Shown in pieces: positions 21,796 through 58,927 of a DNA stretch of 64,000 nucleotides. The DNA is from Candidatus Dojkabacteria bacterium. GTDB lineage: Bacteria; Patescibacteriota; Dojkabacteria; J137. The stretch is taken from contig JAUQWV010000006.1 of assembly GCA_030834985.1 (NCBI GenBank), positions 140,168 through 204,167 of the forward strand, read 5' to 3'. Each line of letters starts with the position of its first letter. Positions within the stretch are counted from its first letter, which is position 1. The notes beneath the pieces were generated by a model, which saw only the letters and a list, made by a program, of their open reading frames with translations, ran no database searches and was not told the DNA's origin. A program made the position numbers and the translations under genes.

Positions 21796-21844
21796 AAGAG
21801 AAATTTGCAACATGGATAGTTTATGGGTAGATTCTTGTCCCGAC

Positions 21845-21918
21845 TAGGCCTGCGCAGACTTGAACTGCGGACCCCGGCTTTATAAGAACCGTGCTCTAAC
21901 CAGCTGAGCTACAGGCCT
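21845..21918 (-). tRNA. tRNA-Ile with UAU anticodon (reads AUA), complete
   Basis: Reverse complement AGGCCTGTAGCTCAGCTGGTTAGAGCACGGTTCTTATAAAGCCGGGGTCCGCAGTTCAAGTCTGCGCAGGCCTA. 7-bp perfect acceptor stem. D-arm GCTC/GAGC. Anticodon stem CGGTT/AGCCG. Loop CTTATAA (34-36 = TAT). T-arm CGCAG-TTCAAGT-CTGCG. Confidence 0.8.
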
Positions 21919-21968
21919 AGTCGAAATAAGACAGTTGCCCCCATAAACCCAAATTATTCGCAAATTTA

Positions 21969-25825: not shown

Positions 25826-28411
25826 TTAAATATCCAACCTTATTATTGTGGTACCATCCAGTACATAGATTGCTCTACTTGCCTCGTTTACAACTACTTC
25901 TTTAATATTTTTAAATATATTTGAATCACTGCCTCTATAAATATATGAAGTATTATAGATTAAGTTTTTAGCATCTGAGTCCTCGATTGTAAAAAGCATA
26001 ACCCTTCGGTTATTTGGATCGGCAACCGCTAAAAGTTTACCATCAATGTCAATGGCAGTAGCATTAGAAATAGAATCTATATCTTTCTGTATTGTATTAA
26101 CAAAACTATCGGCAGTAATTGTATTTTCGCCTCCTGCTAAGTATCTGCGCAATCCTTTACCTCTAATTAATGTATAGATTTCGTAAGGAACTGTAATATC
26201 AATTGCACTTCCAAATTCTGGATCAGTTTTCCAATTAGGAGGATTCTGAACATTATATACTGCGCCTCCACCTACATAACCGTCAGCATCTTTATCTCTT
26301 TTAAATATCTGTTGGTGATTTTGATGTATTTCGTATAAGGCATCATTACCACTAAAGACAGCTGCTTTAGTAACATTTCCAATAACAGATTGAGAGAGAC
26401 CAGGAATCCTTTGAACACTTCCATCTCCAGATAGATTAATCTTGCCAACTGCACTTGTTGAATCGGTATCAAAGAATATAACGTCACCCGCTACATTCTT
26501 TGTTAGTGTGTATGGGGCACTCAGATTCGTTGCTATTTGATTTATCTGGGAATTCTCCTGAGTGCCCACTTGATAAATCGTATTTCTTCCTTTATCTGAA
26601 ACATATAGACCACCTGCTGCAAATACCATATCAGTCACATTCGCGTCTGAATATAACTTCCCGATATCTGCAATTACCAAAGGTTCACTAAATCCTACAA
26701 TTCCTAAAATATCATCCTTATTAGTTTGGATCTTTGTCTGTGCAGCATCAATTTCATCCAAGAATAGCTCTTCTTTTTTCTGAGCTTCAAATTTATTATT
26801 TAAACTATCTAATTGATTAACTAATTCTGTTTTTTGATCATCTGAAGTTGCAGATGGAATTCTTCTGATTATAGAATTAAGATCAGAAGTATAGGTATCG
26901 ATATTCGATCTTACCTGCTCCACCCTAGATTCTTCCTGTAATTGGATATTTCTATTGTTTATTGAATTAATGATAACCACACCTAAAACGATCACAAGAA
27001 TTATCAATATAATTCTGTTTCGTTTTCTACGTCTTGCTTTAGCAAACATATCTCGTCTATCATCCACACCTCCACCTATAAATTCTTTTTTAAACCAGCC
27101 TAAGAAACGAACAATCAAATCTTTTATCTTTATTACGATATCACGTAAATATTTAATATAAGTTTTATTACTTTTTTGCAAAAAAGGCATTAATTTTGTT
27201 TGAGAAAATGTTTTCAATCTCTCTGCAGCAGGGCCTGATGCTGCACCAAATTTGGATGTACTCCCATACAGTACATCTTCATCTTCAAATTGATCTTCTT
27301 GAAATTGACTGAACCTTTTTTCTCCTGAAGGTCTAAGTTCATCATCGTCTTCAAAGTCAACTTCAATCGGCACAGGTCTTGCGCTTTGAGCACCAGTCTG
27401 TGTACGCAGGTTATCTAGACTAGATCTACCAGCTGCAATAGAACGTGTTAAACCGCCTCTTAATCGACTCATTAACAATTTACCTCTTGGAATTTCTGCT
27501 TCAACATCTGCTAATGATCGAACATTTATCTCCTCTTCATCTTCTATACGTACATCATCTAATTCTACGGATTCAGCAGATACATTAGCCAAAGCATCAA
27601 TTGAATCTTCTGCTTCAAAATCCTCATCTTGAATTGGAATGTATTTAGCAGAGCCAGCAGAACCATCGATATACTCACCTTCTTCGTCTTCAACTTGAGC
27701 AGCAACTTCTGCTGGCTCTGCTAAATCAGCTAAAGGTTCATTTAAAACTTCATCCGGATCAGCATCTGCGGTTTTCCACTCATCATTTTCATCTGCTAAA
27801 AGCAATACTGCGGCACCTTGTTTAGATGCTAATGGTGATAAAGCTTTTATTCTTAAATTACTTACAGCTTCTTGAATAATATTTGAATCAATATCATTTG
27901 CAGTAGATGTAGAAAGAGCTAACCTATCCCCTTCTTCCAGTTCTAAACTTCCGGTTTTTAAGAAGCCCATCATACTTCCATCTGTTAGGCCTTGAGATAA
28001 GTCTGCATAGCGGTCACCTCTCTTAATAAATACCTTTGTTTCTCCGATTACTCCCAAATACAAAAAGTTCTTTTCAAAAAGTGCTAACCCAAGCTCAATA
28101 TCTAAACCATTTTGAGCGTATCTTTCATCTGAAGAAAGCAAAGTTTCCATTTTGGATTTCATTTTCCATACAGCATTTTCAAGTCTAATGTTGTAATCAC
28201 CTTCTTTTCCTTCCTCGAATAAATAATTCTGAAGCTCATCCAAAAACATTTTTGCTAATGCTTCCAAACGAGTTTCATTATTTGCTGTTTCAAGTTTAAT
28301 AATTGCAAAAAGCTCTAGAGGTTCAATGGAATTTTCAGGTTTAAAGTAATAAACTCCAGCCCACGAGTTAGAAGATTGAGTGCCGACTAAAAAATCTGCT
28401 CTTAATTGCAT
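25826..28411 (-). CDS. Large membrane protein: N-terminal cytoplasmic domain (possibly PP2C/SpoIIE-like), acidic linker, one TM helix, and a C-terminal extracellular repeat (beta-propeller-like) domain
   Basis: 861 aa. TM ILIILVIVLGVVIINSI at ~aa 480. Acidic stretch DEDFEAEDSIDAL...EDEEEINV. C-terminal repeats with NHL-like patterns (DIDGKLLAVADPNNRRVMLF). The N-terminal fold assignment is tentative. Confidence 0.5.
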   Translation of the reverse strand: MQLRADFLVGTQSSNSWAGVYYFKPENSIEPLELFAIIKLETANNETRLEALAKMFLDELQNYLFEEGKEGDYNIRLENAVWKMKSKMETLLSSDERYAQNGLDIELGLALFEKNFLYLGVIGETKVFIKRGDRYADLSQGLTDGSMMGFLKTGSLELEEGDRLALSTSTANDIDSNIIQEAVSNLRIKALSPLASKQGAAVLLLADENDEWKTADADPDEVLNEPLADLAEPAEVAAQVEDEEGEYIDGSAGSAKYIPIQDEDFEAEDSIDALANVSAESVELDDVRIEDEEEINVRSLADVEAEIPRGKLLMSRLRGGLTRSIAAGRSSLDNLRTQTGAQSARPVPIEVDFEDDDELRPSGEKRFSQFQEDQFEDEDVLYGSTSKFGAASGPAAERLKTFSQTKLMPFLQKSNKTYIKYLRDIVIKIKDLIVRFLGWFKKEFIGGGVDDRRDMFAKARRRKRNRIILIILVIVLGVVIINSINNRNIQLQEESRVEQVRSNIDTYTSDLNSIIRRIPSATSDDQKTELVNQLDSLNNKFEAQKKEELFLDEIDAAQTKIQTNKDDILGIVGFSEPLVIADIGKLYSDANVTDMVFAAGGLYVSDKGRNTIYQVGTQENSQINQIATNLSAPYTLTKNVAGDVIFFDTDSTSAVGKINLSGDGSVQRIPGLSQSVIGNVTKAAVFSGNDALYEIHQNHQQIFKRDKDADGYVGGGAVYNVQNPPNWKTDPEFGSAIDITVPYEIYTLIRGKGLRRYLAGGENTITADSFVNTIQKDIDSISNATAIDIDGKLLAVADPNNRRVMLFTIEDSDAKNLIYNTSYIYRGSDSNIFKNIKEVVVNEASRAIYVLDGTTIIRLDI

Positions 28412-28468
28412 ATACTTAAGTAACTTAACAATGTCTTTTAACAGTATATCAAAAAGAAATTTGTAAAG

Positions 28469-28690
28469 TTATGCAGACAAAATCAAAATTAGAGTTCCAA
28501 TTAAAATCGCTATATATGCGACTGATATTAAATCGAAGATTGGTCCATTACTTGTTTTGATAATTCTATTCATCTTTAAAGTTTGGAACACAAGAATAAA
28601 TCCTGCAAACATGTGAATAACACCAACAATGATTGCAATAATTTTTATAAATTCAATTATTTCTGGTGTTAATAAATCAGAGATTATCAT
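28469..28690 (-). CDS. Small two-TM membrane protein
   Basis: 73 aa, almost entirely hydrophobic. Overlaps the upstream gene by 14 nt, which suggests coupling. Confidence 0.4.
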   Translation of the reverse strand: MIISDLLTPEIIEFIKIIAIIVGVIHMFAGFILVFQTLKMNRIIKTSNGPIFDLISVAYIAILIGTLILILSA

Positions 28691-29435
28691 ATCTATAAGT
28701 TTTTGCTACATTAGATAAATCGGTAATTATATCTCTTACTTTTGTAGGAGAAGGTACCTTTAAACAAACCATTTCAGTTCTATCACTTGCACTGTAAACC
28801 AAAACATTACCATAATTAAAAATATCGCCGATAATTCCTGCAGAACGCTCTTTAACTTCCTGAATATCCTGCAGATTAACTTCAGAAACCGAGTAGCTTG
28901 AAAAAGGCCGGTAGTCATAATCCATAATTCGCTGATCAGTTACAATAAACGGATCAAAATACCAGTCAATAAAATGAGATACAATATCTGTAAAAATAAA
29001 AGAATAATAAACAAGCGCTAAAATAGTTGCTGCCTTGCTGCTTAAAAAGGAGATATCCATCTGTGCATTAAAAGCTACAAGAATTGAAGAAACTATAAAA
29101 GGTAAAATTATCAGAAAGAGGTTTTTTATAACCCAGCTTAGGTTAGTTAGCCAATGAGCTCTTACCAGTACATATACTTTTTCATCCGGATTTTGAGTTT
29201 CAAATACCAAATTAGGCTTTAAAATCATTGAGCCCCAAGTTAGGCCTATTTTCTTAGGTACGATTTTATCAGCTTCCTTTTCACGCATCCTCATTACATA
29301 TTCACGATTAGTTTGAGGCGGCTGCATATTTGTGGGATAGTAGTAGTAACCATTAAAAGGATTAGCCATGCCATTAGAGTGCAGTGGCCGTGGTTCTTTA
29401 TTTAGTTTCTGCTCGCTTTGATTGAATTTATCCAT
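28677..29435 (-). CDS. Membrane protein with a membrane-flanked PH-like (YdbS/YdbT bPH_2-type) architecture
   Basis: 252 aa. Two adjacent TM helices (IKNLFLIILPFIVSSILVAF; AATILALVYYSFIFTDIVSHF) followed by a soluble domain (IVTDQRIMDYDYRPFS...). Assignment by architecture only. Confidence 0.45.
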   Translation of the reverse strand: MDKFNQSEQKLNKEPRPLHSNGMANPFNGYYYYPTNMQPPQTNREYVMRMREKEADKIVPKKIGLTWGSMILKPNLVFETQNPDEKVYVLVRAHWLTNLSWVIKNLFLIILPFIVSSILVAFNAQMDISFLSSKAATILALVYYSFIFTDIVSHFIDWYFDPFIVTDQRIMDYDYRPFSSYSVSEVNLQDIQEVKERSAGIIGDIFNYGNVLVYSASDRTEMVCLKVPSPTKVRDIITDLSNVAKTYRYDNL

Positions 29436-29448
29436 ACCTGATTATAAC

Positions 29449-30912
29449 TTATTTAGGATTTACTAATATAATCTGGTTACTAATCTGCGGCACACTTGCT
29501 GCATCTATCAAAAATACTGGGAAAAACTGGCTTACTTGGGTGGCTAACTCTATTTTCTTTGAGATTGCCTGAATTTCTTGGTCAAGAAGTGAGGATTTCT
29601 GCAATGATTCCGAATTTCCTTTAAAGCCAAATTCAATATTCTCTTTTTCTATCTTTAAGATATCGACCTCTCTTCTTTTTTTATAGTATTCATCCGAGGT
29701 AATAGATTTACTACTTAACTCTTCTATTTCAGTATTTTTTTGAGCTAATTTACTAGAAATATCTTTTAGATCTGCTTGTAAAGTCTCGTATGATTTACCA
29801 TTCAAGTTTTTTTCAATATTTCGACCTAATAAATCAATCTCTAATTTCAATGCATTAAGTAAAGCTGAATTTATAAAAAGCTGAGAGTTCGGATCTGAAT
29901 AATTCCTAACATTGTCAACCTGAGCTACGGGAGCTACATTGGGGACCATCTGTGCGCTTAAAGCTAAGTCATCTTCACTTGCAGGTAAACCTTCCAGCGC
30001 ATCTTTATAGAATCGGGAAATTATATACAGTAAGCTTAAAATCACAGAGAATATCATTCCAGCCAATAAGACAGAAAAGCTGTATGAATAGAGAAATCCG
30101 ATAATCGTAATAACAATATTAAGTATTGCTAGAACCACTGTCGGATTAACCTCAAATATCCGTTGTCTTTTATTTTCATCTTCTTCTGAGTTTATGATTG
30201 GTGCGTTTCTTTTAGAAGATAGATTCGTATTTGTAAACTCAATCTTTTTACTTTTTAGATCTGTAACCTCTTCTTTAGAAGGTGCAGCTGAATTAAAAGA
30301 ATCTATTTTACTTTGTAGCTCGTTTTTCTTTGTAATAATCAACTCTACCGACTTTAGCATTTGAGATATTGTATCCTGCTCTGTTTTCAACGACTTTATT
30401 TCCTTATTTATTTCATCCTTTAATTTCTTTTCATTTTGGTAAAAATCAACCTGTTCCTGTACAGATTTAATTCTAGATTCAACTTCCTGAAGTCTAGCAA
30501 ACTTTTGTTTTTCCTCTTCTGATAGTGATTGCTGCAGCTGCCCCGATAGCGATGTCTTTTGTTGCTTTTTTGCTTCAAGTTCAGATTGTAAGGATGGGTC
30601 AATAGTTAATACTAATCTTTTTATATTATTTACAAATTCATCGGATTGTATGGCAGCTGCATTAATAACTCTACTTTGTAATGCTTGTTCAGAAAGGATT
30701 ATGCCAGCTTGAGCTTTAAGAATCTCAAAAAAACTTTGTTCCGATGGTACTGTGTATTCGGTATTATCAGCCACTTGAAAGCTCAAGCTGGCGTCCTGTA
30801 CAACTTGGTTACTCAAAATCTGCAAAACTTTATTCATTTCGTCTAAAGAAATTGATTCATTCTCTAGATTAATTACTCTATCTGCATTTTTGAATATTTT
30901 TAGTTTAAACAT
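29449..30912 (-). CDS. Coiled-coil protein with a central pair of TM helices
   Basis: 487 aa. Long heptad-like Gln/Glu/Lys-rich stretches. Central hydrophobic hairpin VVLAILNIVITIIGFLYSYSFSVLLAGMIFSVILSLLYII. Confidence 0.5.
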   Translation of the reverse strand: MFKLKIFKNADRVINLENESISLDEMNKVLQILSNQVVQDASLSFQVADNTEYTVPSEQSFFEILKAQAGIILSEQALQSRVINAAAIQSDEFVNNIKRLVLTIDPSLQSELEAKKQQKTSLSGQLQQSLSEEEKQKFARLQEVESRIKSVQEQVDFYQNEKKLKDEINKEIKSLKTEQDTISQMLKSVELIITKKNELQSKIDSFNSAAPSKEEVTDLKSKKIEFTNTNLSSKRNAPIINSEEDENKRQRIFEVNPTVVLAILNIVITIIGFLYSYSFSVLLAGMIFSVILSLLYIISRFYKDALEGLPASEDDLALSAQMVPNVAPVAQVDNVRNYSDPNSQLFINSALLNALKLEIDLLGRNIEKNLNGKSYETLQADLKDISSKLAQKNTEIEELSSKSITSDEYYKKRREVDILKIEKENIEFGFKGNSESLQKSSLLDQEIQAISKKIELATQVSQFFPVFLIDAASVPQISNQIILVNPK

Positions 30913-30923: not shown

Positions 30924-31826
30924 CTAATTAGTACATGCAGACGGATCACAACTCGATCTACAAAATAGAGTCAGTGCATTATCTCCAGTACCAATCATTA
31001 CACGTTCTCTCCTACACCAGGTAGGAGCTCCTGGGCTGTCACCCTCTTGAACTCTGCACAATAAATCAACCCTATTCAATCCAAGAAAACCTGTAGGACA
31101 ATCGTTAGAATCCATCCCTTCTCTGCCCTGGCACAAAATACCTTCAGGCTGTAAACCTTCTTGAAGAGCTACACAAGGAGCTGCTAAAAACCTTGCAGCA
31201 ATTACACCTTTAGGATCTGTACATAAACTTCCATAAAAGAACTGAAAGCCTGGCATATTTACGTTGTAACATTGTGCCGATTCATTTATTCCAAGTAACC
31301 TAAATACTGTAGTCAGAATCGGCACTGCCAAGAATACTAATGCAAATCCGATTAAATAATTGATAATACGTTTCCTAACTTCTGTGATTTTAGTAGGATC
31401 ACCTCGTGAAATCAGATAATCAAAACCCATTTTTACAACAAGCAAGAATGATAATGAAGCAACTAATCCCCAAATTGCATATAAGATTCTTACAAACCAT
31501 ACTTCTATTTGCTGTAGTGCAGGAGGCTTTAATTGAGCAATAATTTTATCTGTAGGGTTTGAACAATCGTTGCCGGCTGCGTTAATGCTATTGTTTGGAC
31601 AACAGAAGTAATTTCCAAAACTATCTGGCCCAGCTACAGTCAATTTTACTGTACCTTGATTGTCACTTAATACTTCACCTGATTGTTTATCAAAACATTG
31701 ATAGCTATCTGGATTGTTACCCGAAAAATCAAAAGATTGTAACTGTGCATCTACACTTGAAGTTAAAAAATTCCCAAACAATAAATTAGCAAAAATAAAT
31801 ATGTACAGAAGTGTTTTTTTCTTCAT
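30924..31826 (-). CDS. VirB2/TrbC-like two-helix pilin-like protein with Cys-rich N- and C-terminal extracellular extensions (paralog 1 of 6)
   Basis: 300 aa. Signal peptide. Core motif hydrophobic helix - ISRGDPTKITEVRKRI - hydrophobic helix, shared with the five genes upstream. 20 Cys outside the core. Confidence 0.5.
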   Translation of the reverse strand: MKKKTLLYIFIFANLLFGNFLTSSVDAQLQSFDFSGNNPDSYQCFDKQSGEVLSDNQGTVKLTVAGPDSFGNYFCCPNNSINAAGNDCSNPTDKIIAQLKPPALQQIEVWFVRILYAIWGLVASLSFLLVVKMGFDYLISRGDPTKITEVRKRIINYLIGFALVFLAVPILTTVFRLLGINESAQCYNVNMPGFQFFYGSLCTDPKGVIAARFLAAPCVALQEGLQPEGILCQGREGMDSNDCPTGFLGLNRVDLLCRVQEGDSPGAPTWCRRERVMIGTGDNALTLFCRSSCDPSACTN

Positions 31827-31884
31827 TAGACTTAATATTAATAATCTACTACTATAATAGATTAAAGAGATTTGCTAAGCAACT

Positions 31885-31915
31885 AAAAGCCCCCCGATTA
31901 ACGGGGGGGGGCTTT
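31885..31915 (-). terminator. Intrinsic terminator inside the pilin-like gene array (after paralog 2)
   Basis: Hairpin gcccccc-gattaa-cgggggggc with flanking A/T runs, between 31948..32436 and 30924..31826. Confidence 0.65.
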
Positions 31916-31947
31916 TCATAATCTCTATTAAAATTATTCTCTTATGC

Positions 31948-32436
31948 TTAAGGTTGCAAAATCGAATTTAATAACGGACTTGTCTGGTTGTTAATTGTAT
32001 TATTTGTATCTAATGCTCCACCAGCACCAAAGAATGCAATTACAATAATAATACCGATTAAGCCAACAAACAATGCTGCAATACCTATGAATACAGATTT
32101 TATAGCTTTCTGTGCTTCTTCGATTTTTCCAGGATCACCTTCACTTCTAATATATTTAATAGCAGCTTTAATAATTACATAAATCGAGAAGATGATTATT
32201 GCAACAAAGATTAAAGATACTATTAGATTGAATGTACTTCTAATTGTACTTCCAGTTGTATCGTCAGTAATTCCTGTACATAAAGTATTAATTCCGAATG
32301 CACTTACACTATTAATGAACGGGAACACTGTACAAATAAGATTTTGAGCTCGTACAGTTAATAACGGTGATAACACAGGGGCAGCTAGCAAGAATGCTCC
32401 TACCATCATTGTTATCAAAGCTTTATTTTTGAACAT
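31948..32436 (-). CDS. VirB2/TrbC-like two-helix pilin-like protein (paralog 2; candidate major subunit)
   Basis: 162 aa. Signal peptide. Core LIVSLIFVAIIIFSIYVIIKAAIKYIRSEGDPGKIEEAQKAIKSVFIGIAALFVGLIGIIIVIAFFGAGG. Followed directly by a strong terminator. Confidence 0.55.
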   Translation of the reverse strand: MFKNKALITMMVGAFLLAAPVLSPLLTVRAQNLICTVFPFINSVSAFGINTLCTGITDDTTGSTIRSTFNLIVSLIFVAIIIFSIYVIIKAAIKYIRSEGDPGKIEEAQKAIKSVFIGIAALFVGLIGIIIVIAFFGAGGALDTNNTINNQTSPLLNSILQP

Positions 32437-32453
32437 AAAGTTTTTTTAATAAA

Positions 32454-32888
32454 TTAATTTGTAATTAAAGGTATTTGCGTACCCTCCGGCGCATTTAATG
32501 TTACATTTAGAATACCACCAGCACCAAAGAATGCAAGTACTATTATTAATCCTATCAAACCTACAAAAATAATTCCAATGCCAATGTATACTCCTCTCAT
32601 CATCCCAACTCCTGCCTCTATCTGGCTTGGATCTCCGTTACTTCTTATTATAGTAACAGCCGCTTTAATAATCAAGAAAACACCATAAAGCATTATTGCT
32701 ATAAAAATAAAAGCAAGTAAAGCCTTTATTAAGTTTGTTACCTGAGAATTTACATCACCGCATGCATCAAATACAGATGTATTATACTGATCACACGGCA
32801 AAACATCTGCAGCAGTTTGGGCTAATACATTAACCTTTAATAATAAAGTTAATGCTATAAAAGCTGTAATTTTAAAAAGATTTTTCAT
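32454..32888 (-). CDS. VirB2/TrbC-like two-helix pilin-like protein (paralog 3)
   Basis: 144 aa. Signal peptide. Core ...AVTIIRSNGDPSQIEAGVGMMRGVYIGIGIIFVGLIGLIIVLAFFGAGG, near-identical in its C-terminal helix to paralog 2. Confidence 0.55.
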   Translation of the reverse strand: MKNLFKITAFIALTLLLKVNVLAQTAADVLPCDQYNTSVFDACGDVNSQVTNLIKALLAFIFIAIMLYGVFLIIKAAVTIIRSNGDPSQIEAGVGMMRGVYIGIGIIFVGLIGLIIVLAFFGAGGILNVTLNAPEGTQIPLITN

Positions 32889-32897
32889 AGTTTTTTG

Positions 32898-33473
32898 TTA
32901 ATTTCCTAAAGGTTGACAAGCAGCTTCTGCAGCTGCAGCATCAGTATTTTGAGTTTTATCTAAAAGCGCCTGATAGTAAAATTCGTAATTAGTGGTATCG
33001 CTACAAAATTGAAACATCTTTGGCCAGCTGAATATTGTTCCTACTCCTAACAACAAACCTACTACACTTAAAACTACTGGGAAAAACAAAGTTATTGCAG
33101 CACCCAGAAGTACTGATTGTACTTGTTTAAATGCCACTGCTAAGTTTTCCGCATTGCCTTGACTCTGCAAGCCTTTAACTCCAGCTTTAACAAGTAAAAA
33201 TACCCAGAATACAACTAAACCTATAGTAGCTAAAGCTCCTACAAAAGAAAGCCAGCTTAAAATACTCGCATTATTAGTATCAAAATCAATAAAGCTGGCG
33301 AATATTGGTATTCTAATTTCTCCTAATGCCAGTTCGTCATCAATATTACAATTTACACAAGAAGTAGTTGAATTAATAAGGCCACCAGGTCTATCTTGCG
33401 CAAGAACTGGAAGAACCATTAAGCTAACGCTTATAGCAAATGTAGTTATTGAGTAAATTAAATATTTCTTCAT
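32898..33473 (-). CDS. VirB2/TrbC-like two-helix pilin-like protein (paralog 4, divergent)
   Basis: 191 aa. Signal peptide. Core LATIGLVVFWVFLLVKAGVKGLQSQGNAENLAVAFKQVQSVLLGAAITLFFPVVLSVVGLLLG. Confidence 0.45.
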   Translation of the reverse strand: MKKYLIYSITTFAISVSLMVLPVLAQDRPGGLINSTTSCVNCNIDDELALGEIRIPIFASFIDFDTNNASILSWLSFVGALATIGLVVFWVFLLVKAGVKGLQSQGNAENLAVAFKQVQSVLLGAAITLFFPVVLSVVGLLLGVGTIFSWPKMFQFCSDTTNYEFYYQALLDKTQNTDAAAAEAACQPLGN

Positions 33474-33474
33474 A

Positions 33475-34116
33475 TTATTTTATAGTTATAACTACTCCGC
33501 CTGTATCTCCTCCACTAATATCCAGGTTGCTTAATTGCCCAACACCTATTAGGTTGGCAATAACCTGTATTATTATTATAAAGCCCCAGCAAATAATTGC
33601 TCCAAGTACAAGATTTGTCAGCTCTTGATTAATTGCAGCAATCTCATCGGGAGTTGAAACCATCGTCCGCTTTACACCTGTTACATAGATTCCTCTAACA
33701 ATTGCATATAACGAAACAAATCCTAAGACAGTTGTAAATAATATATTTATAATAGTACCGATATTATCTGGATTCACCCTTATTGTAGTATTAAAAACTT
33801 CAAAGCTTCTAAATAGCTCTGGATTACCTTCTCCCGGCAATGTACCTGACTGTCTAGATCCGTCAGCATTGACGCATATATTAGGACAGCATCTTGTTCC
33901 AGGACTAGTAATTCTTTGAAGCTGGCAGTTCAAGTCTGCTGTGTATCCGCCAGATATTCCAGGCCTATAAGGCGCAGGGCAAGCATTAGGAATATAATAT
34001 GGAGCTTGGCAGTTTGCTCCACCGATTTCGTTCTCTGGATCGCCACCATTTGCGCTCACACTATCAAAGCTTAAGAAGCTTAAGATTAAAACTCCAAATA
34101 TTAATATTTTTTTCAT
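33475..34116 (-). CDS. VirB2/TrbC-like two-helix pilin-like protein with a Cys/Pro/Gly-rich N-terminal extracellular domain (paralog 5, divergent)
   Basis: 213 aa. Signal peptide. N-domain with 10 Cys (NCQAPYYIPNACPAPY...CCPNICVNADG). C-terminal two-helix core LYAIVRGIYVTGVKRTMVSTPDEIAAINQELTNLVLGAIICWGFIIIIQVIANLIG. Confidence 0.45.
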   Translation of the reverse strand: MKKILIFGVLILSFLSFDSVSANGGDPENEIGGANCQAPYYIPNACPAPYRPGISGGYTADLNCQLQRITSPGTRCCPNICVNADGSRQSGTLPGEGNPELFRSFEVFNTTIRVNPDNIGTIINILFTTVLGFVSLYAIVRGIYVTGVKRTMVSTPDEIAAINQELTNLVLGAIICWGFIIIIQVIANLIGVGQLSNLDISGGDTGGVVITIK

Positions 34117-34125
34117 TCTGATATA

Positions 34126-34506
34126 TTAATTCTGAATTAAGCCGCCCTGGATACCTAAAAGTCTTCCGGCAAAATCTACTATTGTTGGCGCAAAAACAGC
34201 AATTGCAAAACCTACAATCGCAGCTACTATTATTTGACTGCTTGATTTAACTTTATCCGGATTACCTTGCGAAGTTAATCTTATCCAACCTCCGTATAAA
34301 ACCATTGCTCCAAAAGCAATAATAAATACTGGTCTAATTAAAGTTGTTACAGCATTAATAATATCTTCAAGACTGCCATATCTAGTTGGGTTAGGAATTT
34401 GAAAATTTTGATTTACATTAGTTAGTCCGCCAGCAAGAACAGGTACTGAGAAAATTACTAATTGAGTTATTACAACCGCAAATGTTAAAAACTTTTTTTT
34501 ACTCAT
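34126..34506 (-). CDS. VirB2/TrbC-like two-helix pilin-like protein (paralog 6)
   Basis: 126 aa. Signal peptide. Core FIIAFGAMVLYGGWIRLTSQGNPDKVKSSSQIIVAAIVGFAIAVFAPTIV. Confidence 0.5.
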   Translation of the reverse strand: MSKKKFLTFAVVITQLVIFSVPVLAGGLTNVNQNFQIPNPTRYGSLEDIINAVTTLIRPVFIIAFGAMVLYGGWIRLTSQGNPDKVKSSSQIIVAAIVGFAIAVFAPTIVDFAGRLLGIQGGLIQN

Positions 34507-34524: not shown

Positions 34525-37104
34525 TTAATTTACAATATCTCTAACAGTTAGTCCATCAAATACAGCTTCCATACCACTTCTGAGCTTACCCTGAATTATT
34601 AAATCTGCTAACTTGTCTTCAATATTTTCTTGTATTATTCTTTTTAATTCTCGCGCACCGTATGTTGGGCTAAAACCACGTTCAGATAATTCAGATAAGG
34701 TTCTCTCATTCCATAAAAAACTTATTCCTCGCTGCATCAAGTTATCATTTATTTTCTTTAGCATTAATGTAACAATCTGCTCAATTTCTATTTTAGACAA
34801 AGGTTTGAACATTATCAACTTATCAAATCTGTTTAAGAATTCTATTCTAAAAGATTCCTGTAATTTACTACCTACTAATTTTTCAACTTCATGATATTTT
34901 TGCCCTTTTAAAATCTCATTTGCAATAAGATTAGAGCCGATATTTGATGTCATAATTATGATTGTGTTTGTAAAATCAATCTTTCGGCCCATTCCATCTT
35001 TTAAGGTGCCTTCATCTAGAACTTGCAAGAATAAATCCAGTACCTTTTTATTTGCCTTTTCAATTTCATCTAATAAGATTAAAGAGAATGGTCTTGTACG
35101 AACAGCCTCTGTTAAGTACCCGCCAATAAAGTTGCCTTTATCATCGGTATATCCGATTATCCTATTTAAATTCAGTTCCTCTTGATATTCCGACATATCA
35201 AGCCTGATCATTAAGTTCTCACTACCGTAATATATATCAGCTAATGTTCGGGCTACCTCTGTTTTTCCAACTCCGGTTGGTCCATAAAATAAGAAAGATG
35301 CAATCGGTTTTTTACCGGCAGACAGACCTGATCGTGATCTTTTTATTGCAGATGCTACAGCATCAATTGCTTCTTGCTGACCTACAACCCGTTCATGCAT
35401 TTGAATAGATAGATTCATCAAGGTCTGGCTTTCTGATTCAGACAAATTTCCAACTTTAACGCCAACTCTATCGGATAAAACTTCATCAACTGTAGCAACG
35501 TCTAAGAAAGCCAGACCTTGATTCTTTGCTGCAAGACAGGCTTCTTCCAAAAGATCAATACCCTTATCTGGCATTACTCTATCTTGGTCAAATTTAGGAG
35601 CAAATTCTACAATTCTTTTTAGAGCGTTTACTCTAACACTTGTCTTATATTTCTTTTCAATTCTTGGAACTTCATCGATCAAAATTTGAAGAGCAACATT
35701 AGAAGCTGGTTCCTTTAAATGTACTACATCAAAACTTGCTGCCAATGTTTTAATGGGCTTAACATATTTGGAATAATTTGCATTATTTGTTGTTGCAATA
35801 ATCTTTAAATTCAATGCATCGATTGCATTTGTAATTAAATTTACAACCTCTAGTTTTGAGTCTTCACGTATATTTAGTATTTGTGTAAATTCTTCTAAAA
35901 CCAGAATTATATTTCCGGAATATCTGACCTCTTCAAACATTTTCTGTAAAGTCTGTTTAAAGATATCAACTGAACCAACCTGAGTCAGCACTTTATTTAA
36001 ATCAACAACTAAAAGTCTATGATCGTATAAAGAATTCGGAATATCTTCTACAACCATTCTAGTAGCTAAATGTCTAATAAACCTAGTTTTGCCAACACCC
36101 GGATCTCCTAAAACCATACATGCAGTTGCACGTCCTCGCTCCATTGATTGTAAAAGTCTAGCCATTTCCTGTTCTTTACCTATTGTTAACATAAAATAGC
36201 CAGTCGCTGCTTCTTTAGTAAAATCTTCAGAATATTCATCAAGTACTGGAGTAACTCTAGAGGTATATGCTCTATTTACATCGCCCTTTGGTTTTAACTT
36301 CGATAACTTTTCCCATCTTTCGTAATATTCCTTTTGTTTAGTTTCATTTTTAAACCAAACTCTTAACCCTTCAAGTTCTAACTCTGAAACACCTAAATCA
36401 AAATATATTGGTTTTAAAAAATACTTATTAAGAACAAAAAATAGTATGAACTTATTAATGCTGTTTGACTCTATTTTTATTGCTTCATCAAATAAGTATA
36501 GAAAAAGTGTTTTATGAGCATCACTGAATTTATATGATTGACTATTTTCATTCTGTTTTAATAACTCAATAAATTTATCTACATTTACTCCTAGCCTATT
36601 TTTTAAAAAGTATTGAATCTCTTTATGTTCAATAAGCAAACGAGTAAGGTTTACAATAAATGGATAGTTGTTATCTACTAACGTCTTATCAATAATTACT
36701 AAAGTTTCAAAATCCATGAACTCATCTATATAAAGTTCTATCTGTTTTCCGCTTTCAATTTGTTTAACCTTTTTAAGTAGATCAAATTTTTTAATAGATG
36801 TATCGAATTTATCGCGGTTTCTGCGTAAAAATAATGCAATGATGAAAGTATAAATACCTAAAAATGGTAAGTAGGTTAACAAAGATGTTGGATTTAGGAA
36901 CATATCTAAACCAAGATTACCTTGTAATACTAATAATCCTACAGGTACTGCTATAAGAATAAGCGTAAAAAGATCAAGCAGCCTCGAAGCACTTTTTTCA
37001 GTTCTATATACCGATAGTCTATCGCCTCTAAAATAAGATAGAGAATGCAGATCAACTACAATTTTTGCATTTTTATACTTTGCTAAAACTACATTTCCTT
37101 TCAT
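34525..37104 (-). CDS. Membrane-anchored double-AAA+ ATPase of the Clp/Hsp100 (ClpA/B/C) family: N-terminal TM domain replaces the Clp_N domain
   Basis: 859 aa. Residues ~40-95 hold two hydrophobic helices (LLDLFTLILIAVPVGLLVLQG; LLTYLPFLGIYTFIIALFL). D1 Walker A GDPGVGKTRFIRHLA. D2 Walker [16 protein letters not shown] plus sensor/arginine-finger region. C-terminal ClpB_D2-small-like domain (TYGARELKRIIQ). No Clp_N repeats. Confidence 0.7.
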   Translation of the reverse strand: MKGNVVLAKYKNAKIVVDLHSLSYFRGDRLSVYRTEKSASRLLDLFTLILIAVPVGLLVLQGNLGLDMFLNPTSLLTYLPFLGIYTFIIALFLRRNRDKFDTSIKKFDLLKKVKQIESGKQIELYIDEFMDFETLVIIDKTLVDNNYPFIVNLTRLLIEHKEIQYFLKNRLGVNVDKFIELLKQNENSQSYKFSDAHKTLFLYLFDEAIKIESNSINKFILFFVLNKYFLKPIYFDLGVSELELEGLRVWFKNETKQKEYYERWEKLSKLKPKGDVNRAYTSRVTPVLDEYSEDFTKEAATGYFMLTIGKEQEMARLLQSMERGRATACMVLGDPGVGKTRFIRHLATRMVVEDIPNSLYDHRLLVVDLNKVLTQVGSVDIFKQTLQKMFEEVRYSGNIILVLEEFTQILNIREDSKLEVVNLITNAIDALNLKIIATTNNANYSKYVKPIKTLAASFDVVHLKEPASNVALQILIDEVPRIEKKYKTSVRVNALKRIVEFAPKFDQDRVMPDKGIDLLEEACLAAKNQGLAFLDVATVDEVLSDRVGVKVGNLSESESQTLMNLSIQMHERVVGQQEAIDAVASAIKRSRSGLSAGKKPIASFLFYGPTGVGKTEVARTLADIYYGSENLMIRLDMSEYQEELNLNRIIGYTDDKGNFIGGYLTEAVRTRPFSLILLDEIEKANKKVLDLFLQVLDEGTLKDGMGRKIDFTNTIIIMTSNIGSNLIANEILKGQKYHEVEKLVGSKLQESFRIEFLNRFDKLIMFKPLSKIEIEQIVTLMLKKINDNLMQRGISFLWNERTLSELSERGFSPTYGARELKRIIQENIEDKLADLIIQGKLRSGMEAVFDGLTVRDIVN

Positions 37105-37427
37105 AAACTAAGTACTATATACCTTATTAACTGAATAATTGGTAAAAACGGTAATACTGCTAATGAAATTCCAAAAAGTAAGAATGGAATTGTAACAACC
37201 AAGCTTATACACGATCCCACTCCAATCCACATAAATCTAATAATAAAGCTTACAAATTTACCAATTCCTGAATTATCTTGAAATAATGGCTGTGAAATAT
37301 TCTTTGCCATCGGCAAAGTATTAGTCAAATTAAGGTTATAAACAAATCTACCTAATACGTAGTCTTCCCAAAAATCTTTAACTAGCGATAAATACCACCA
37401 GGAAAAAACAAAAAATAAATTCGCCAT
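37101..37427 (-). CDS. Small polytopic membrane protein, first gene of the locus (4-nt ATGA overlap with the AAA+ gene)
   Basis: 108 aa with 2-3 predicted TM helices. Its stop overlaps the downstream start, which suggests co-translation. Confidence 0.45.
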   Translation of the reverse strand: MANLFFVFSWWYLSLVKDFWEDYVLGRFVYNLNLTNTLPMAKNISQPLFQDNSGIGKFVSFIIRFMWIGVGSCISLVVTIPFLLFGISLAVLPFLPIIQLIRYIVLSL

Positions 37428-37487: not shown

Positions 37488-37514
37488 AAAGCGCCGGCGT
37501 TAACGCCGGCGCTT
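37488..37514 (-). terminator. Intrinsic terminator downstream of groEL
   Basis: Hairpin gcgccggcg-ttaa-cgccggcgc with flanking A/T runs, 24 nt after the groEL stop. Confidence 0.75.
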
Positions 37515-37537
37515 TAAACACGATCTATTTATACCTA

Positions 37538-48929: not shown

Positions 48930-49325
48930 ATGGTAATTTCTATTGATTATGGTACAAAACGTGCAGGTATTGCCTTTTCCGATGAAAGTGAATCTATTGC
49001 GCTTGCCGATAAAGCTTGCCTGTTTAAAAAAGAATCTGAATTACTAGATTATGTAGATAACCTTGTCCAGAAACACAATCCAAGAGAATTTGTTGTAGGA
49101 CTACCCTTAGGATTAGAAGGTAAGCCAACGAAGATATCAGCTAAGGTCCAAGAATTCGGGAAAAAACTCGAGGAAACTTTTAATTTAACAGTTGTTTATT
49201 GGAATGAAACTATGACAAGTATAATGGCATCAAAGGCTGTTCGGAAGGACAAAAAAGGCAGTTTAGATAGTGAATCTGCTAGAATAATACTTCAGGAATA
49301 TTTAGATTTTAAGAAAGGACAATGA
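48930..49325 (+). CDS. ruvX: Putative pre-16S rRNA nuclease / Holliday-junction resolvase-like YqgF (RuvX)
   Basis: 131 aa. MVISIDYGTKRAGIAFSD matches the YqgF N-terminal consensus (LGLDLGTKRIGVAVSD). Confidence 0.8.
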   Translation: MVISIDYGTKRAGIAFSDESESIALADKACLFKKESELLDYVDNLVQKHNPREFVVGLPLGLEGKPTKISAKVQEFGKKLEETFNLTVVYWNETMTSIMASKAVRKDKKGSLDSESARIILQEYLDFKKGQ

Positions 49326-50413: not shown

Positions 50414-50416
50414 TCA

Positions 50417-50791: not shown

Positions 50792-50800
50792 ACTTAATTT

Positions 50801-51256
50801 ATGCTTACAAAAATCCAAGATCTATCAAATAAATATTATCTGCACGTGATTTTTCTATTCAGCTTTACTTCTGTAATTGGAAGTTTGTATTTTAGTAACG
50901 TATTAATGATAGAGCCTTGTTATTTATGCTGGTGGCAAAGGATTTTTATGTATCCTCTATTTTTTTTGAGTGCTGTTAGCCTGATTTTTAAAATCAGATT
51001 ACAAAAATTGCACGTTTTAGCTTTAACTATTCCAGGTTTATTATTTGCTTTATACCATTATCTAATGCAAACATTTGGTTTATTTAAGGAATTTTCTACC
51101 TGTACAGCAACATCCAAACCTTGCGATGCTGTTGATGTTGTGTACTTAGGCTTTATAACAATTCCGTTTTTATCGTTAATGGCATTTATTGTAATAAACT
51201 TGATAGTTATAAGTTCTGTTAACTTTCCAACTTTACAAGAAAGATTAAAAAAGTAA
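50801..51256 (+). CDS. Disulfide bond formation protein B (DsbB/BdbC family)
   Basis: 151 aa. Four TM helices. First periplasmic loop EPCYLCWWQRIFMYP (CxxC). Second Cys pair TCTATSKPCD. Confidence 0.75.
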   Translation: MLTKIQDLSNKYYLHVIFLFSFTSVIGSLYFSNVLMIEPCYLCWWQRIFMYPLFFLSAVSLIFKIRLQKLHVLALTIPGLLFALYHYLMQTFGLFKEFSTCTATSKPCDAVDVVYLGFITIPFLSLMAFIVINLIVISSVNFPTLQERLKK

Positions 51257-58304: not shown

Positions 58305-58927
58305 TGGATGAGGAAATATTACAAGAGAATTTAACCGTCCCTGTTCTCGGATTTAATGTGCCGATAGAAGTTTACGACTTCTTTAGAACTGCGGGTATTG
58401 TTCTTGTACTCTGTATACTTGTTTACATATTTATTGCTACACCAAATCAAGTTGAAGGAGATTCGATGATTCCAACTTTAAGCAATAAAGATTTAATAAT
58501 TACAGATCGAGTCAGTCAATGGATGGGAAATATTCTTAAGGATAGTACATTTAGTTACGAAAGAGGCGATATCATTGTCTTTCAAAAACCTGGATTTAAA
58601 GACTTTGTAAAAAGGATTGTAGGTTTGCCAGGCGAAAGAATCTCTATTCATAATGGCCGAGTCTTTATTAACGAAGTTGAGCTTACCGAAGACTATATTT
58701 ATCAAGATTCAACAATGGGAGGTAACTTTATTACTAACGACGGACAAGAGATTCTTGTTCCAGAAAATCGATATTTTGTTTTAGGTGATAACCGCATTGA
58801 CAGCCTGGACTCACGATACGAAGATATTGGATTAATAAACCGTGACTGGATTAAAGGGAAAGTACTATTAAGATACTGGCCGCTCACAGTGTTCAATGTG
58901 TTCGAAAACCCCATGTATAATATTTAA
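58304..58927 (+). CDS. lepB: Signal peptidase I
   Basis: 207 aa. TM anchor. Catalytic Ser box GDSMIPTL. Lys box. GDNRIDSLDSRY motif. ATGA overlap with the ileS stop. Confidence 0.85.
   Translation: MDEEILQENLTVPVLGFNVPIEVYDFFRTAGIVLVLCILVYIFIATPNQVEGDSMIPTLSNKDLIITDRVSQWMGNILKDSTFSYERGDIIVFQKPGFKDFVKRIVGLPGERISIHNGRVFINEVELTEDYIYQDSTMGGNFITNDGQEILVPENRYFVLGDNRIDSLDSRYEDIGLINRDWIKGKVLLRYWPLTVFNVFENPMYNI

Follow-up and report, generated by a model that had tools for sequence, protein, structure and literature searches.

What are the six short genes that stand side by side on the minus strand at 30924-34506 of the 64-kb stretch of Candidatus Dojkabacteria DNA analyzed here (64,000 nucleotides, hereafter the window)? 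A first-pass annotation had described them as an unusual sixfold expansion of VirB2/TrbC-like pilin genes, in which a highly expressed major subunit is followed by a terminator and read-through minor subunits. The answer that we favor is that all six are probably ancient paralogs, none of them redundant, from the VirB2-like T4SS_pilin family of Patescibacteria (PF18895), arrayed on the chromosome of an ultra-small bacterium of the class Dojkabacteria.

Gene layout and probable transcription units

The array consists of six same-strand ORFs, each lying where the first-pass annotation had placed it: P1 (30924-31826, 300 aa, 14 Cys), P2 (31948-32436, 162 aa, 2 Cys), P3 (32454-32888, 144 aa, 2 Cys; P2 is its closest paralog), P4 (32898-33473, 191 aa, 4 Cys), P5 (33475-34116, 213 aa, 7 Cys), and P6 (34126-34506, 126 aa, no Cys), which is the smallest. 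Transcription runs from P6 to P1. In every ORF, an N-terminal hydrophobic signal-like segment with a V-x-A end is accompanied by two strong hydrophobic segments; a Sec-type signal peptide and a two-helix hairpin are present in all six. The loop motif S-x-G-(D/N)-(P/A)-x-(K/Q/N)-(I/V/L), previously regarded as common to the whole set, holds for five paralogs and is replaced by STPDEI in P5, while the FFGAGG ending, said to be frequent, was found in P2 and P3 only. The second helices of these two proteins had been called near-identical; by hand count, they agree at 16 of 18 core positions and are about 72% identical as a whole, and the full proteins are 44% identical. In addition, the Cys counts of 20 and 10 once given for P1 and P5 have to be corrected to 14 and 7, one of the P5 residues being located inside helix 2. 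The extracytoplasmic Cys counts of P1 to P6 (14, 2, 2, 4, 6, and 0, respectively) are all even, and those of their orthologs are mostly even.

The intergenic gaps from P6 to P2 measure 9, 1, 9, and 17 nt, and the gap between P2 and P1 measures 121 nt. The latter does contain the terminator-like structure that had been noted there, a GC hairpin on the minus strand (31890..31910, with a T-run; the sequence CCCCCCG-TTAAT-CGGGGGG followed by CTTTT lies at 31908..31890). Because transcription proceeds from P6 to P1, this hairpin follows the fifth gene rather than the second, and its location 3' of the fifth pilin gene means that it is not an attenuator behind a major subunit. Some 11 canonical operon-end terminators were located in the window, this hairpin among them, and a conserved, putative promoter-like element detected by consensus scan (TTAGCA-16-TATAGT, 31851..31878, minus strand) comes next, upstream of P1; the idea of a major subunit followed by read-through minors is therefore not supported. 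Among strains (L001-L006), the hairpin is kept in the P2-P1 gap, but its C-tract varies and its loop occurs in both orientations. In the related locus L007, the same gap carries a different GC hairpin, and a similar TTAGCC...TATAGT element occurs at the equivalent place upstream of P1; no hairpin was found in this gap in L008.

The region appears to be organized as two transcription units. The first would start with a 108-aa membrane ORF (37101..37427, minus strand), which is probably its first gene, continue through a membrane-anchored Hsp100-like ATPase and P6 to P2, and stop at the hairpin. The second would comprise P1, as its first gene, and the membrane proteins downstream of it. A further strong terminator (37515..37488) follows GroEL just upstream of the 108-aa ORF, and unit 1 is thus flanked by strong terminators at 37515..37488 and 31910..31890.

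Neighboring genes and the link to type IV secretion

The ATPase (34525..37104, minus strand, 859 aa) is a ClpB/Hsp100-like double AAA+ protein with Pfam AAA_2, ClpB_D2-small, and AAA_lid_9 matches, all of its scores against the NCBIfam ClpB, ClpA, and ClpV models being far under the cut-offs. Its gene lies 18 nt upstream of P6, apparently in one operon with five of the pilins. The 108-aa ORF, which shares 4 nt with the start of the ATPase gene and has no family match, is conserved in all loci. Downstream of P1, on the same strand, lie genes for a 487-aa coiled-coil membrane protein (29449-30912), a 252-aa bPH-like membrane protein (28677-29435), a 73-aa DUF5657 protein (28469-28690), and an 861-aa protein (25826-28411). 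Their Pfam matches are weak or absent and their synteny is kept in the 11 other Dojkabacteria loci examined (L007-L017); on the strength of synteny only, these genes (25826..30912) may belong to the pilin system.

Further genes of possible relevance are encoded in the window. A T4CP-like (VirD4/TraD-type) ATPase of 821 aa (22275..24740, minus strand) has an N-terminal TM segment and weak matches to TraG-D_C, DUF87, TrwB_AAD_bind, TraD, CedD, and CD1115, with PF26449 also listed. The window encodes no other T4SS-type ATPase. A paralog of this protein in L013, which matches TraD at 2.2e-11, adjoins the array. The DsbB-type disulfide oxidoreductase pointed out earlier (50801..51256, plus strand) was confirmed by a PF02600 match (2.6e-14) and a CxxC at residue 40, and it is a candidate oxidant of the extracytoplasmic pilin Cys pairs. 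Similarly, signal peptidase I (58304..58927, plus strand; Peptidase_S26, 2.3e-39) is a candidate for cleaving the V-x-A signal peptides. YidC is also encoded within the window.

Homologs of VirB4, TrsD, PrgI, or VirB6 were found neither in the 64-kb window nor within 10 kb of the array at any Dojkabacteria locus, and the coupling of the array to a T4SS therefore rests on evidence at the family level and on a literature table. In two loci from other Patescibacteria (L019 and L021), PF18895 genes adjoin VirB4 (P-loop_TraG, ~1e-25), PrgI, and a TrbL/VirB6-like gene, and Table S1 of PMC12102498 flags Dojkabacteria assemblies as VirB4-positive.

The same absence of VirB4, PrgI, and VirB6 nearby could be read as a sign that the pilin-like proteins serve not a VirB4 machine but a distinct envelope or filament system made up with their conserved neighbors, namely the Hsp100-like ATPase, the 108-aa, coiled-coil, and bPH-like membrane proteins, joined in most species by a wall hydrolase of the SpoIID type; the unfoldase would extract, assemble, or recycle hairpin subunits. 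The tight packing of the ATPase and 108-aa genes directly upstream of P6, the bracketing of unit 1 by strong terminators, the identical arrangement in all 11 Dojkabacteria loci, and the SpoIID-domain gene within the downstream block of L008 and L009 agree with such a system. However, the housekeeping genes GroESL and SmpB are interleaved in the conserved block of these small genomes, so the synteny may be historical rather than functional, and other Patescibacteria lack the ATPase at their pilin loci (L018-L021). To our knowledge, there is also no precedent for an Hsp100 protein that assembles a pilus. We consider this explanation unlikely.

Conservation, domain architecture and family identity

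All 11 other Dojkabacteria loci, three complete genomes among them, carry 1:1 orthologs of the six genes, with gene order and flanks unchanged. The array must thus be old, with every paralog kept. Orthologs share 35-82% identity, compared with 20-44% between paralogs. P6 forms the most conserved ortholog group (mean pairwise identity of 55%, with orthologs in 11 of 11 loci), and P2 reaches a mean of 53% across species and 100% in six strain contigs. P2 to P6 are 98-100% identical among strains. In P1, by comparison with strain L002, 45 of the 49 differing positions fall within residues 181-300; strains differ at 45 of 120 C-terminal positions, and none of the 77 hairpin positions differs. Strong variation between strains is thus confined to the Cys-rich C-terminal domain of P1, which fits a surface-exposed module.

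AF2 predicts helical hairpins in P6 and P1. The model of P6 (pLDDT 78) shows helices at residues 46-78 and 83-116, and that of P1 (pLDDT 80.5) places the two hairpin helices at 104-139 and 144-177 and a further, C-terminal domain at approximately 205-300. Besides the hairpin, P1 is predicted to have a small beta domain on its N-terminal side and an alpha+beta, Cys-rich ectodomain on its C-terminal side; eight of its Cys residues are kept across 43 homologs. P5 is a divergent paralog with an N-terminal Cys-rich ectodomain (six extracytoplasmic Cys residues besides the one in helix 2), and the C-terminal tail of P4 carries a W-P-K-M-F-x-x-C motif that resembles G-F-Q-F-F..L-C-T-D-P of P1.

These data also bear on whether the paralogs might be interchangeable alternative major subunits that provide antigenic or host-range variation, as has been suggested for Patescibacteria (PMC12102498). 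The low identity among copies, the difference of the P1 ectodomain between strains, and the lineage-specific additional copies (a second P6 in L009, two or three copies of P2 in L014) would suit such a role. Yet throughout the class each paralog has a positional ortholog of its own and retains a distinct architecture and a distinct conserved Cys pattern, five of the six hardly vary among strains, and the pilin series of Southlakia epibionticum is reported to be essential, which argues against redundancy. Interchangeability is thus quite improbable.

With regard to family identity, a Pfam search placed P1 (2.3e-9, 37.6 bits) and P6 (5.5e-8, 33.2 bits) over the curated cut-off of PF18895 (26.6 bits) and P2 below it (3.4e-4). 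Nine of 30 orthologs of P3 to P5 match PF18895 at E<=0.01, and no other family is matched by more than one of them, so the pilin-family identity proposed at first was upheld. A caveat is that the two-helix hairpin is a simple fold and that profile scores are inflated by hydrophobic helices. When an HMM was built for each ortholog group and run over every ORF of 55 aa or longer in the window and 15 loci (763 in total), the six HMMs matched pilin paralogs exclusively, even at E<=10, and hhalign gave probabilities of 92-99.7% for most pairs of groups. P2 and P3 are the closest (E 3e-26; hhalign 99.7%), and the P4 group aligns with P2 (97.7%), P3 (97.6%), and P6 (96.3%), in agreement with the HMM cross-matches. 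P5 by itself has no Pfam match and a weak top NCBIfam match (NF045849); its ortholog HMM matches P1 (7.5e-8), P4 (1.9e-6), and P6 (2.6e-5) but nothing outside the pilins, and its group aligns with that of P1 at 95.3%. To judge from these profiles, the six genes are real, related pilin genes whose kinship exceeds chance. In agreement with the assignment of the organism, homologs bear Dojkabacteria names, and some are annotated as pilins by NCBI. P2 also has a weak holin match (E=0.046).

No direct match to TrbC/VirB2 was obtained: the Pfam match to TrbC (PF04956) is non-significant (E=0.28), and solved VirB2/TraA/TrbC pilins gave no significant sequence or structure match to the array proteins. 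One family protein, P0028, carries both PF18895 and PF04956. That the six are unrelated small two-TM proteins (holin-like, transporter accessory, or generic anchors) under a propagated Pfam misnomer is very improbable: the lack of a match to solved pilins, the very simple fold, the holin match of P2, and the fact that we know of no organism in which a filament built of PF18895-family proteins has been seen speak for it, but two copies exceed the curated threshold, P0028 joins the two families, four of the six share a weak best NCBIfam match to a Mycoplasma ICE pilin-like family, no other family (holins and other two-TM families included) competes consistently, and PF18895 occurs with VirB4, PrgI, and VirB6 in L019 and L021 and in 1135 assemblies according to PMC12102498.

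Proposed assembly and comparison with known systems

For the array of non-redundant T4SS_pilin paralogs, we infer the following steps from sequence features and the known biology of VirB2-type pilins. Each precursor would be exported by Sec and cut after V-x-A by signal peptidase I, and the mature pilin would form a helical hairpin in the membrane, its two termini facing outward and its short charged loop (R/K-S-x-G-D-P-x-K) facing inward. A DsbB pathway would oxidize extracytoplasmic Cys pairs, and a Patescibacteria-type (monoderm, MPF-FATA-related) T4SS, encoded outside the 64-kb window, would polymerize pilins from the membrane pool into a pilus-like tube or stalk. The paralogs may divide the labor. 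P2, P3, and P6 are candidate bulk subunits because of their short ectodomains and most conserved cores; P1, P4, and P5 would place disulfide-stabilized ectodomains outside or at the tip, with the C-terminal domain of P1 as a strain-variable, probably host-contacting module. This assignment of bulk and tip roles is drawn only from conservation and domain content.

Compared with the VirB2/TrbC/TraA pilins of diderms, the array proteins share the signal peptide, two hydrophobic helices, a short basic loop, termini predicted outside, the small size of P6, P3, and P2, the Pfam family name, and the bridging protein P0028. They differ in having no significant sequence match or PDB match, a monoderm host, six paralogs instead of one, and large disulfide-rich ectodomains on several copies; moreover, VirB5 or VirB1 was not found adjoining the array in the window, and no evidence of cyclization or acetylation was obtained here. 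The Aeropyrum pernix pilus (8dfu), an example of the archaeal conjugative (Ced/Ted) pilins and likewise built of a helical-hairpin pilin in an organism without an outer membrane, gives the best PDB superposition of the P6 model by TM-score (TMt 0.79, 81 of 84 residues), a non-significant match (E=4, probability 0.41, 12% identity) with no sequence relationship. The Mycoplasma ICE pilin-like family NF045849 (Mbov_0395 family) is the top NCBIfam match of P1, P2, P5, and P6 over nearly the full 80-position model, although the scores lie far under the curated cut-off (15-17 bits versus 40, E 0.003 to 0.02) and serve as a lead only. Its systems belong to monoderm MPF-FATA-type conjugation, a class related to Patescibacteria VirB4 (PMC12102498). 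Bartonella and Anaplasma offer another case of tandem VirB2-type amplification in host-dependent bacteria, whose copies are thought to give antigenic or host-range variation (PMC12102498), whereas the copies here are individually conserved orthologs with distinct architectures.

The closest counterparts are the VirB2-like arrays of Patescibacteria. A sixfold expansion had been considered unusual, but 441 arrays of 2-11 genes have been published from 383 Patescibacteria assemblies (Quinonero-Coronel et al. 2025, PMC12102498), and S. epibionticum ML1 has an essential pilin series within its T4SS cluster (Wang et al. 2023, PMC10633639), for which a review gives the number of pilins as six (PMC12857230); the present array is therefore not unusual. 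In that one tested species, the T4SS is essential for growth on the host cell. Like the published arrays, it is a chromosomal tandem of PF18895 genes, its six copies fall within the range of 2-11, some copies bear extra domains, and copy identity is similar (~20-44% here; 25% on average and 54% at most in the published set). Unlike them, it has no virB4/prgI/virB6 cluster around it or next to it, none being present in the 64-kb window, five of its copies are apparently operonic with a membrane-anchored Hsp100-like ATPase, and its six copies are 1:1 orthologous across the class Dojkabacteria. The array is thus a well-preserved new example of a published kind, and not a new kind of system.

Layout and family assignment of the pilin-like genes

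ORF listing confirmed that six same-strand ORFs fill 30924-34506 almost gap-free: P6 (34126-34506, 126 aa), P5 (33475-34116, 213 aa), P4 (32898-33473, 191 aa), P3 (32454-32888, 144 aa), P2 (31948-32436, 162 aa) and P1 (30924-31826, 300 aa). Since all of them lie on the minus strand, transcription proceeds from P6 to P1, against the gene numbering of the first-pass annotation. The gaps from P6 to P2 measure 9, 1, 9 and 17 nt, and 121 nt lie ahead of P1. The signal-like leader ascribed to these products was found in all six (basic and hydrophobic, with the V-x-A ends VDA, VRA, VLA, VLA, VSA and VLA), and hydropathy analysis revealed, in each of them, a pair of strongly hydrophobic segments with a short charged loop in between. 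A loop motif of the form S-x-G-(D/N)-(P/A)-x-(K/Q/N)-(I/V/L) occurs in all paralogs but P5, which reads ..STPDEI.., and the FFGAGG terminus described as frequent is confined to P2 and P3. The Cys numbers given earlier for P1 and P5 (20 and 10) were corrected to 14 and 7. In total, P1 to P6 contain 14, 2, 2, 4, 7 and 0 Cys residues, respectively; one Cys of P5 is located within helix 2, and the number of extracytoplasmic Cys residues is even in each window paralog.

P2 and P3 share 44% identity (E 3e-26), and the remaining paralog pairs 20-35%. HMMs of the ortholog groups, one per paralog with orthologs from 11 further loci, were searched against all 763 ORFs of 55 aa or longer in the window plus 15 loci. 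Each of the six HMMs matched the other pilin groups, and none matched a non-pilin ORF of this set, many other membrane proteins included, even at E<=10. Pairwise hhalign comparison of the thin ortholog profiles yielded probabilities of 92-99.7% for most pairs, with P5 as the most divergent group (95% to P1 and 67% to P6). Judged from these HMM cross-matches, the lack of non-pilin matches and the hhalign probabilities, the six-gene run is a true paralog array rather than hydrophobic ORFs that happen to lie together.

With regard to the family, P1 (37.6 bits, 2.3e-9) and P6 (33.2 bits, 5.5e-8) exceed the curated gathering threshold (26.6 bits) of the Pfam family PF18895 (T4SS_pilin), P2 lies under this cut-off (21.1 bits, 3.4e-4), and P3, P4 and P5 as single sequences did not match it. 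Among 30 orthologs of P3-P5, nine match PF18895 at E<=0.01, and it is the only family matching more than one member. In precomputed annotation, PF18895 appears on all 32 P6 homologs and most of the 113 P1 homologs; one homolog is annotated with both PF18895 and PF04956 (TrbC/VirB2), and several carry the NCBI name 'pilin [Candidatus Dojkabacteria bacterium]'. P1-P6 also share the architecture of PF18895, namely a signal peptide, two hydrophobic helices and a short polar loop. The VirB2/TrbC-like assignment was thus right in substance, by way of PF18895, and lacked a direct link to classical VirB2/TrbC: the best match to TrbC PF04956 was that of P6 only (E=0.28, 11.8 bits against a cut-off of 27.9). 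No pilin was retrieved from PDB sequences by either the single P6 sequence (phmmer) or a 20-sequence P6 profile, which returned chance PsbW matches at E~1. The AF2 model of P6 is a helical hairpin (46-78/83-116, pLDDT 78), and neither this model nor that of P1 had a significant Foldseek match in PDB. The best TM-score of the P6 model was obtained with 8dfu, the conjugative pilin of Aeropyrum pernix (TMt 0.79, but E=4), a superposition that is compatible with a pilin fold and not probative.

The best NCBIfam match common to P1, P2, P5 and P6 is sub-threshold and falls on NF045849, the Mycoplasma-ICE 'Mbov_0395 pilin-like conjugal transfer protein', and P3 weakly matches the neighbouring ICE family NF045848. 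These matches hint at related pilin-like proteins in MPF-FATA-type systems of wall-less monoderms, a class said to be without VirB2 (PMC12102498).

Two other identities were considered. A phage holin would agree with a single weak PHROGs match (phrog_689, E=0.046, to P2); the context consists of chromosomal housekeeping genes, and this identity was rejected. Type IV pilus pilins are recognized by a short basic leader ending in G, then F/M-T-L-x-E, a single N-terminal hydrophobic helix and a prepilin peptidase; by inspection, the six products have Sec-type V-x-A leaders, two membrane helices and no G-F-T-L-I-E-type motif, which dismisses this identity. VirB2/TrbC pilins, together with phospholipid, are assembled by a VirB4-dependent machine into a tubular pilus; for P1-P6, such polymerisation is a candidate property.

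Conservation, proposed transcription units and the Hsp100-like ATPase

The same gene block was found in 11 other Dojkabacteria loci (L007-L017), three complete genomes among them. The complete genomes that bear the array are BOLA01000001.1, AP024679.1 and OY969472.1. The block comprises a PilM/FtsA-like gene, an ORF of ~700 aa, GroES, GroEL, a 108-aa ORF, a membrane ClpB-like ATPase, P6, P5, P4, P3, P2 and P1, followed by genes for a coiled-coil membrane protein, a SpoIID-domain protein (seen after the array in L008 and L009), a bPH-like membrane protein, DUF5657 and an ORF of ~850 aa. The best match of each window paralog is the gene at the same array position in the other loci, with identities of 35-82% between orthologs versus 20-44% between paralogs. 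Mean pairwise identity is highest in the P6 (55%) and P2 (53%) groups and averages 42% in P3-P5; extra copies are rare and lineage-specific (two of P6 in L009 and two to three of P2 in L014). Because the orthologs are one-to-one and matched by position, and ortholog identity lies above paralog identity, the array is, on these comparisons, ancient in the Dojkabacteria class, with each copy kept individually. The idea of a recent expansion was rejected on the same class-wide orthology. One-to-one upkeep of six paralogs argues for a division of labour, in which the copies would have separate structural jobs, as opposed to interchangeable or spare variants. The gene of an 861-aa protein (25826-28411, minus strand) is conserved beside the array throughout the Dojkabacteria loci. 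The protein has a long acidic low-complexity linker and, after it, a single membrane helix, and gave no significant family match (PsbP_2 at 5.8e-4 only).

The ATPase (34525-37104; together with the 108-aa ORF, 34525-37427, minus strand) is a ClpB/Hsp100-like double AAA+ protein in which two N-terminal membrane helices replace the Clp_N domain. The 108-aa membrane ORF overlaps the ATPase start by 4 nt, and in Dojkabacteria this pair is always located directly upstream of the pilin array. Since a canonical ClpC-like gene is also present in the window (3489-6026), the membrane ClpB-like ATPase is, as far as gene content tells, an extra, specialised paralog. A homolog search with its N-terminal 300 aa, addressing linkage beyond Dojkabacteria, returned one match.

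The intrinsic terminator previously noted after P2 is real (CCCCCCG-TTAAT-CGGGGGG followed by CTTTT, 31908..31890, minus strand). Scanning the whole window for perfect GC-rich hairpins followed by a T-run gave about 11 such structures, each closing an operon, as seen behind ClpC, S1, the rRNA region, L25 and RNase Y. One of them directly follows GroEL (37515..37488). A promoter-like TTAGCA-16-TATAGT lies ahead of P1 (31878..31851, minus strand) and has a counterpart in L007. The simplest reading of this layout would be two transcription units, the first consisting of the 108-aa ORF, the ClpB-like ATPase and P6-P2, and flanked by the hairpins at 37515..37488 and about 31910..31890, and the second starting at P1. 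The proposal of an attenuator separating a major subunit from read-through minor subunits agrees neither with the gene order, with five pilin genes before the hairpin, nor with the distribution of terminators. In the same P2-P1 gap, the hairpin is kept in the six strain-level contigs (L001-L006), a different GC hairpin occurs in L007, long inverted repeats take its place in L009, and none is found in L008 because the genes overlap.

The C-tract of the terminator differs in length (C6, C9, C10 and C11) among the strain contigs, and the hairpin loop in L002 and L006 is the reverse complement (GATTAAC vs GTTAATC); such variation could be homopolymer slippage plus hairpin inversion, or an assembly artefact. 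In-array gaps of L009 (10409-10591, 11219-11311, 11861-12026 and 12982-13126) contain long near-perfect inverted repeats with folding energies of -42 to -67 kcal/mol, two of which contain TAGTAAGTTAGTAGGTTGGTAGGTTAGTAAGTTAGAC; a palindromic element present in several copies would look like this.

Strain variation and the P1 ectodomain

Compared with the window, P2-P6 of the six strain-level contigs show 98-100% identity, and P1 of L002 (10608-11489) is just 84% identical to its window counterpart. The identical P2 is carried by about 48 blocks among strain contigs. The two P1 proteins differ at 49 positions, 45 of which fall within residues 181-300 (45/120); the hairpin contributes none from its 77 positions and the N-terminal ectodomain three from its 76. 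Across 43 P1 homologs, C44, C75, C186, C202 and C257 are invariant, and C218, C232 and C243 are conserved to 90% or more. The AF2 model of P1 (pLDDT 80.5) contains a small N-terminal beta domain, the hairpin (104-139/144-177) and a confidently modelled C-terminal alpha+beta domain (~205-300). Foldseek of this model against PDB gave scattered NTF2-like/VirB8-like matches at E>1, which were not taken as evidence. The variability of the C-terminal domain is the pattern expected of an exposed, interaction-facing module, so far as sequence comparison can indicate. The suggestion that the Cys-rich modules are adhesins or tips is therefore supported for P1 specifically, as strain differences are concentrated in its C-terminal Cys-rich ectodomain, which makes P1 a concrete candidate for host recognition through an outer domain that changes between strains. 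The gene next after P1, encoding a 487-aa coiled-coil membrane protein (29449-30912), is also more variable among strains (91-96% identity).

Some pilin domains in two loci of other Patescibacteria, L020 (6292-10912) and L021 (4518-7064 and 9953-11206), are fused to very large C-terminal extensions (417-901 aa). One of these extended PF18895 pilins carries a Big_5 Ig-like domain, and those of L021 are located inside a VirB4/PrgI/VirB6 cluster. From these fusions, the P1-like combination of pilin and ectodomain is, by domain layout, a theme of the PF18895 family.

Family membership, signal-peptide/hairpin architecture, array conservation, terminator positions and the strain variability of the P1 C-terminus are direct observations; VirB2 biology together with sequence suggests how the proteins may work. 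The pilins would be exported by Sec and cleaved by signal peptidase, and the hairpin would lie N-out/C-out with its basic loop in the cytoplasm. Disulfides may be made by a DsbB pathway; the DsbB gene pointed out earlier was confirmed, and its link to the pilins is plausible and inferred. Polymerisation on a T4SS would produce a tube or stalk resembling a pilus and bearing the ectodomains externally, in which P2, P3 and P6 might be bulk subunits and P1, P4 and P5 accessory or tip subunits. We know of no established filament made of PF18895 proteins.

Secretion-system context and comparison with known arrays

In two loci of distant Patescibacteria found with the P6 profile (L019 and L021), PF18895 genes adjoin three T4SS components: a bona fide VirB4 (P-loop_TraG ~1e-25, plus CagE_TrbE_VirB), a PrgI/VirB3-like protein and a TrbL/VirB6-like polytopic protein. 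Pfam scans of the larger ORFs and tblastn with the verified L019/L021 proteins detected no VirB4, TrsD, PrgI or VirB6 in the 64-kb window, and the two methods likewise gave none of them in the 10 kb around the array in each of the Dojkabacteria loci; no virB4 was found within 20 CDS of the array in the window. The sole T4SS-type ATPase of the window is an 821-aa protein encoded seven genes downstream of the array (22275-24740, minus strand), whose N-terminal TM segment and DUF8128 region recur in its L013 paralog. The window protein had no match in PDB and only weak coupling-protein matches in NCBIfam, on which it was named T4CP-like (VirD4/TraD-type) and rejected as VirB4. The L013 paralog (4010-6373; TraD 2.2e-11) lies immediately upstream of the 108-aa/ClpB-like/pilin block. 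Dojkabacteria assemblies are marked VirB4-positive in Table S1 of PMC12102498, and a T4SS is probably encoded elsewhere in the genome of this organism. As this locus shows, the array can be placed apart from virB4 and beside a membrane Hsp100-like ATPase, a lead that lends itself to testing. We consider it rather improbable that the six-pilin set is truly uncoupled from the VirB4 cluster and operonic with a small membrane partner and a membrane-anchored, double-ring Hsp100/ClpB-like unfoldase that extracts hairpin pilins from the membrane, the hypervariable disulfide-rich P1 C-terminal domain being a host-recognition tip; the ATPase, instead of or besides VirB4, would then serve filament assembly, retraction or turnover, and such an ATPase-pilin partnership would be one not described for any T4SS.

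Names on homologs and genome records place the organism in Dojkabacteria within Patescibacteria/CPR. The window is chromosomal (rRNA operon, tmRNA, SmpB, GroESL, PolA, FtsH, Rho, YidC, ParAB and RNase Y), with a GC content of ~34% and a switch in GC skew and gene orientation near 49-56 kb. The skew passes from negative to positive amid diverging genes (~49000-56000), with ParA/ParB nearby (58965-60674), and these features suggest a replication origin ~15-20 kb from the array. No dnaA gene was found in the window, and DnaA boxes are not enriched near 49-53 kb (22 matches vs 18.3 expected). A position of Patescibacteria T4SS genes near the origin has been remarked on in the literature, and the layout of the window agrees. 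Farther on, a few kb past the T4CP-like ATPase in the downstream direction, are a tyrosine recombinase (XerC/D-like or integrase; 19981-20850, plus strand) and tRNA-Ile (anticodon TAT; 21844-21919, minus strand), with a Cys-containing secreted 273-aa ORF (20860-21681) between them.

Much of the uncultured bacterial diversity belongs to Patescibacteria, which live in attachment to other cells. To our knowledge, no such system other than the unusual monoderm T4SS of Patescibacteria, with its pilin series, has been shown to be essential for growth (in one Saccharibacterium), and the present locus offers a second, well-resolved class-level example of a pilin series.

The sixfold expansion, regarded as unusual in the first-pass annotation, is not so in this phylum. 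Applying PF18895, PF04956 and CONJScan pilin profiles to 3,035 Patescibacteria genomes, Quinonero-Coronel et al. (2025, PMC12102498) detected VirB2-like pilins in 1,948 VirB4-containing assemblies, with pilins near virB4 in 1,135 of the 1,948 (common, not obligatory). They reported 441 arrays in 383 assemblies (mean identity 25%, maximum 54%), an array being defined as 2-11 pilin genes of low mutual identity, in tandem or with one non-pilin gene between. Moreover, a 2025 review (PMC12857230) counts six divergent VirB2-like pilins in the Southlakia epibionticum system of Wang et al. (PMC10633639), whose pilin series was reported to be essential. The window array therefore belongs to an already published kind, and the phenomenon itself is known. 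It resembles the arrays of PMC12102498 in its six contiguous genes, its 20-44% identity and its Dojkabacteria host, and differs from the 1135/1948 assemblies with pilins near virB4 in having no virB4 nearby. What this locus adds to the published arrays is that the six pilins are orthologous one-to-one across the class and lie apart from virB4, that a membrane Hsp100-like ATPase is conserved beside them, apparently in their operon, and that the C-terminal domain of P1 is hypervariable.
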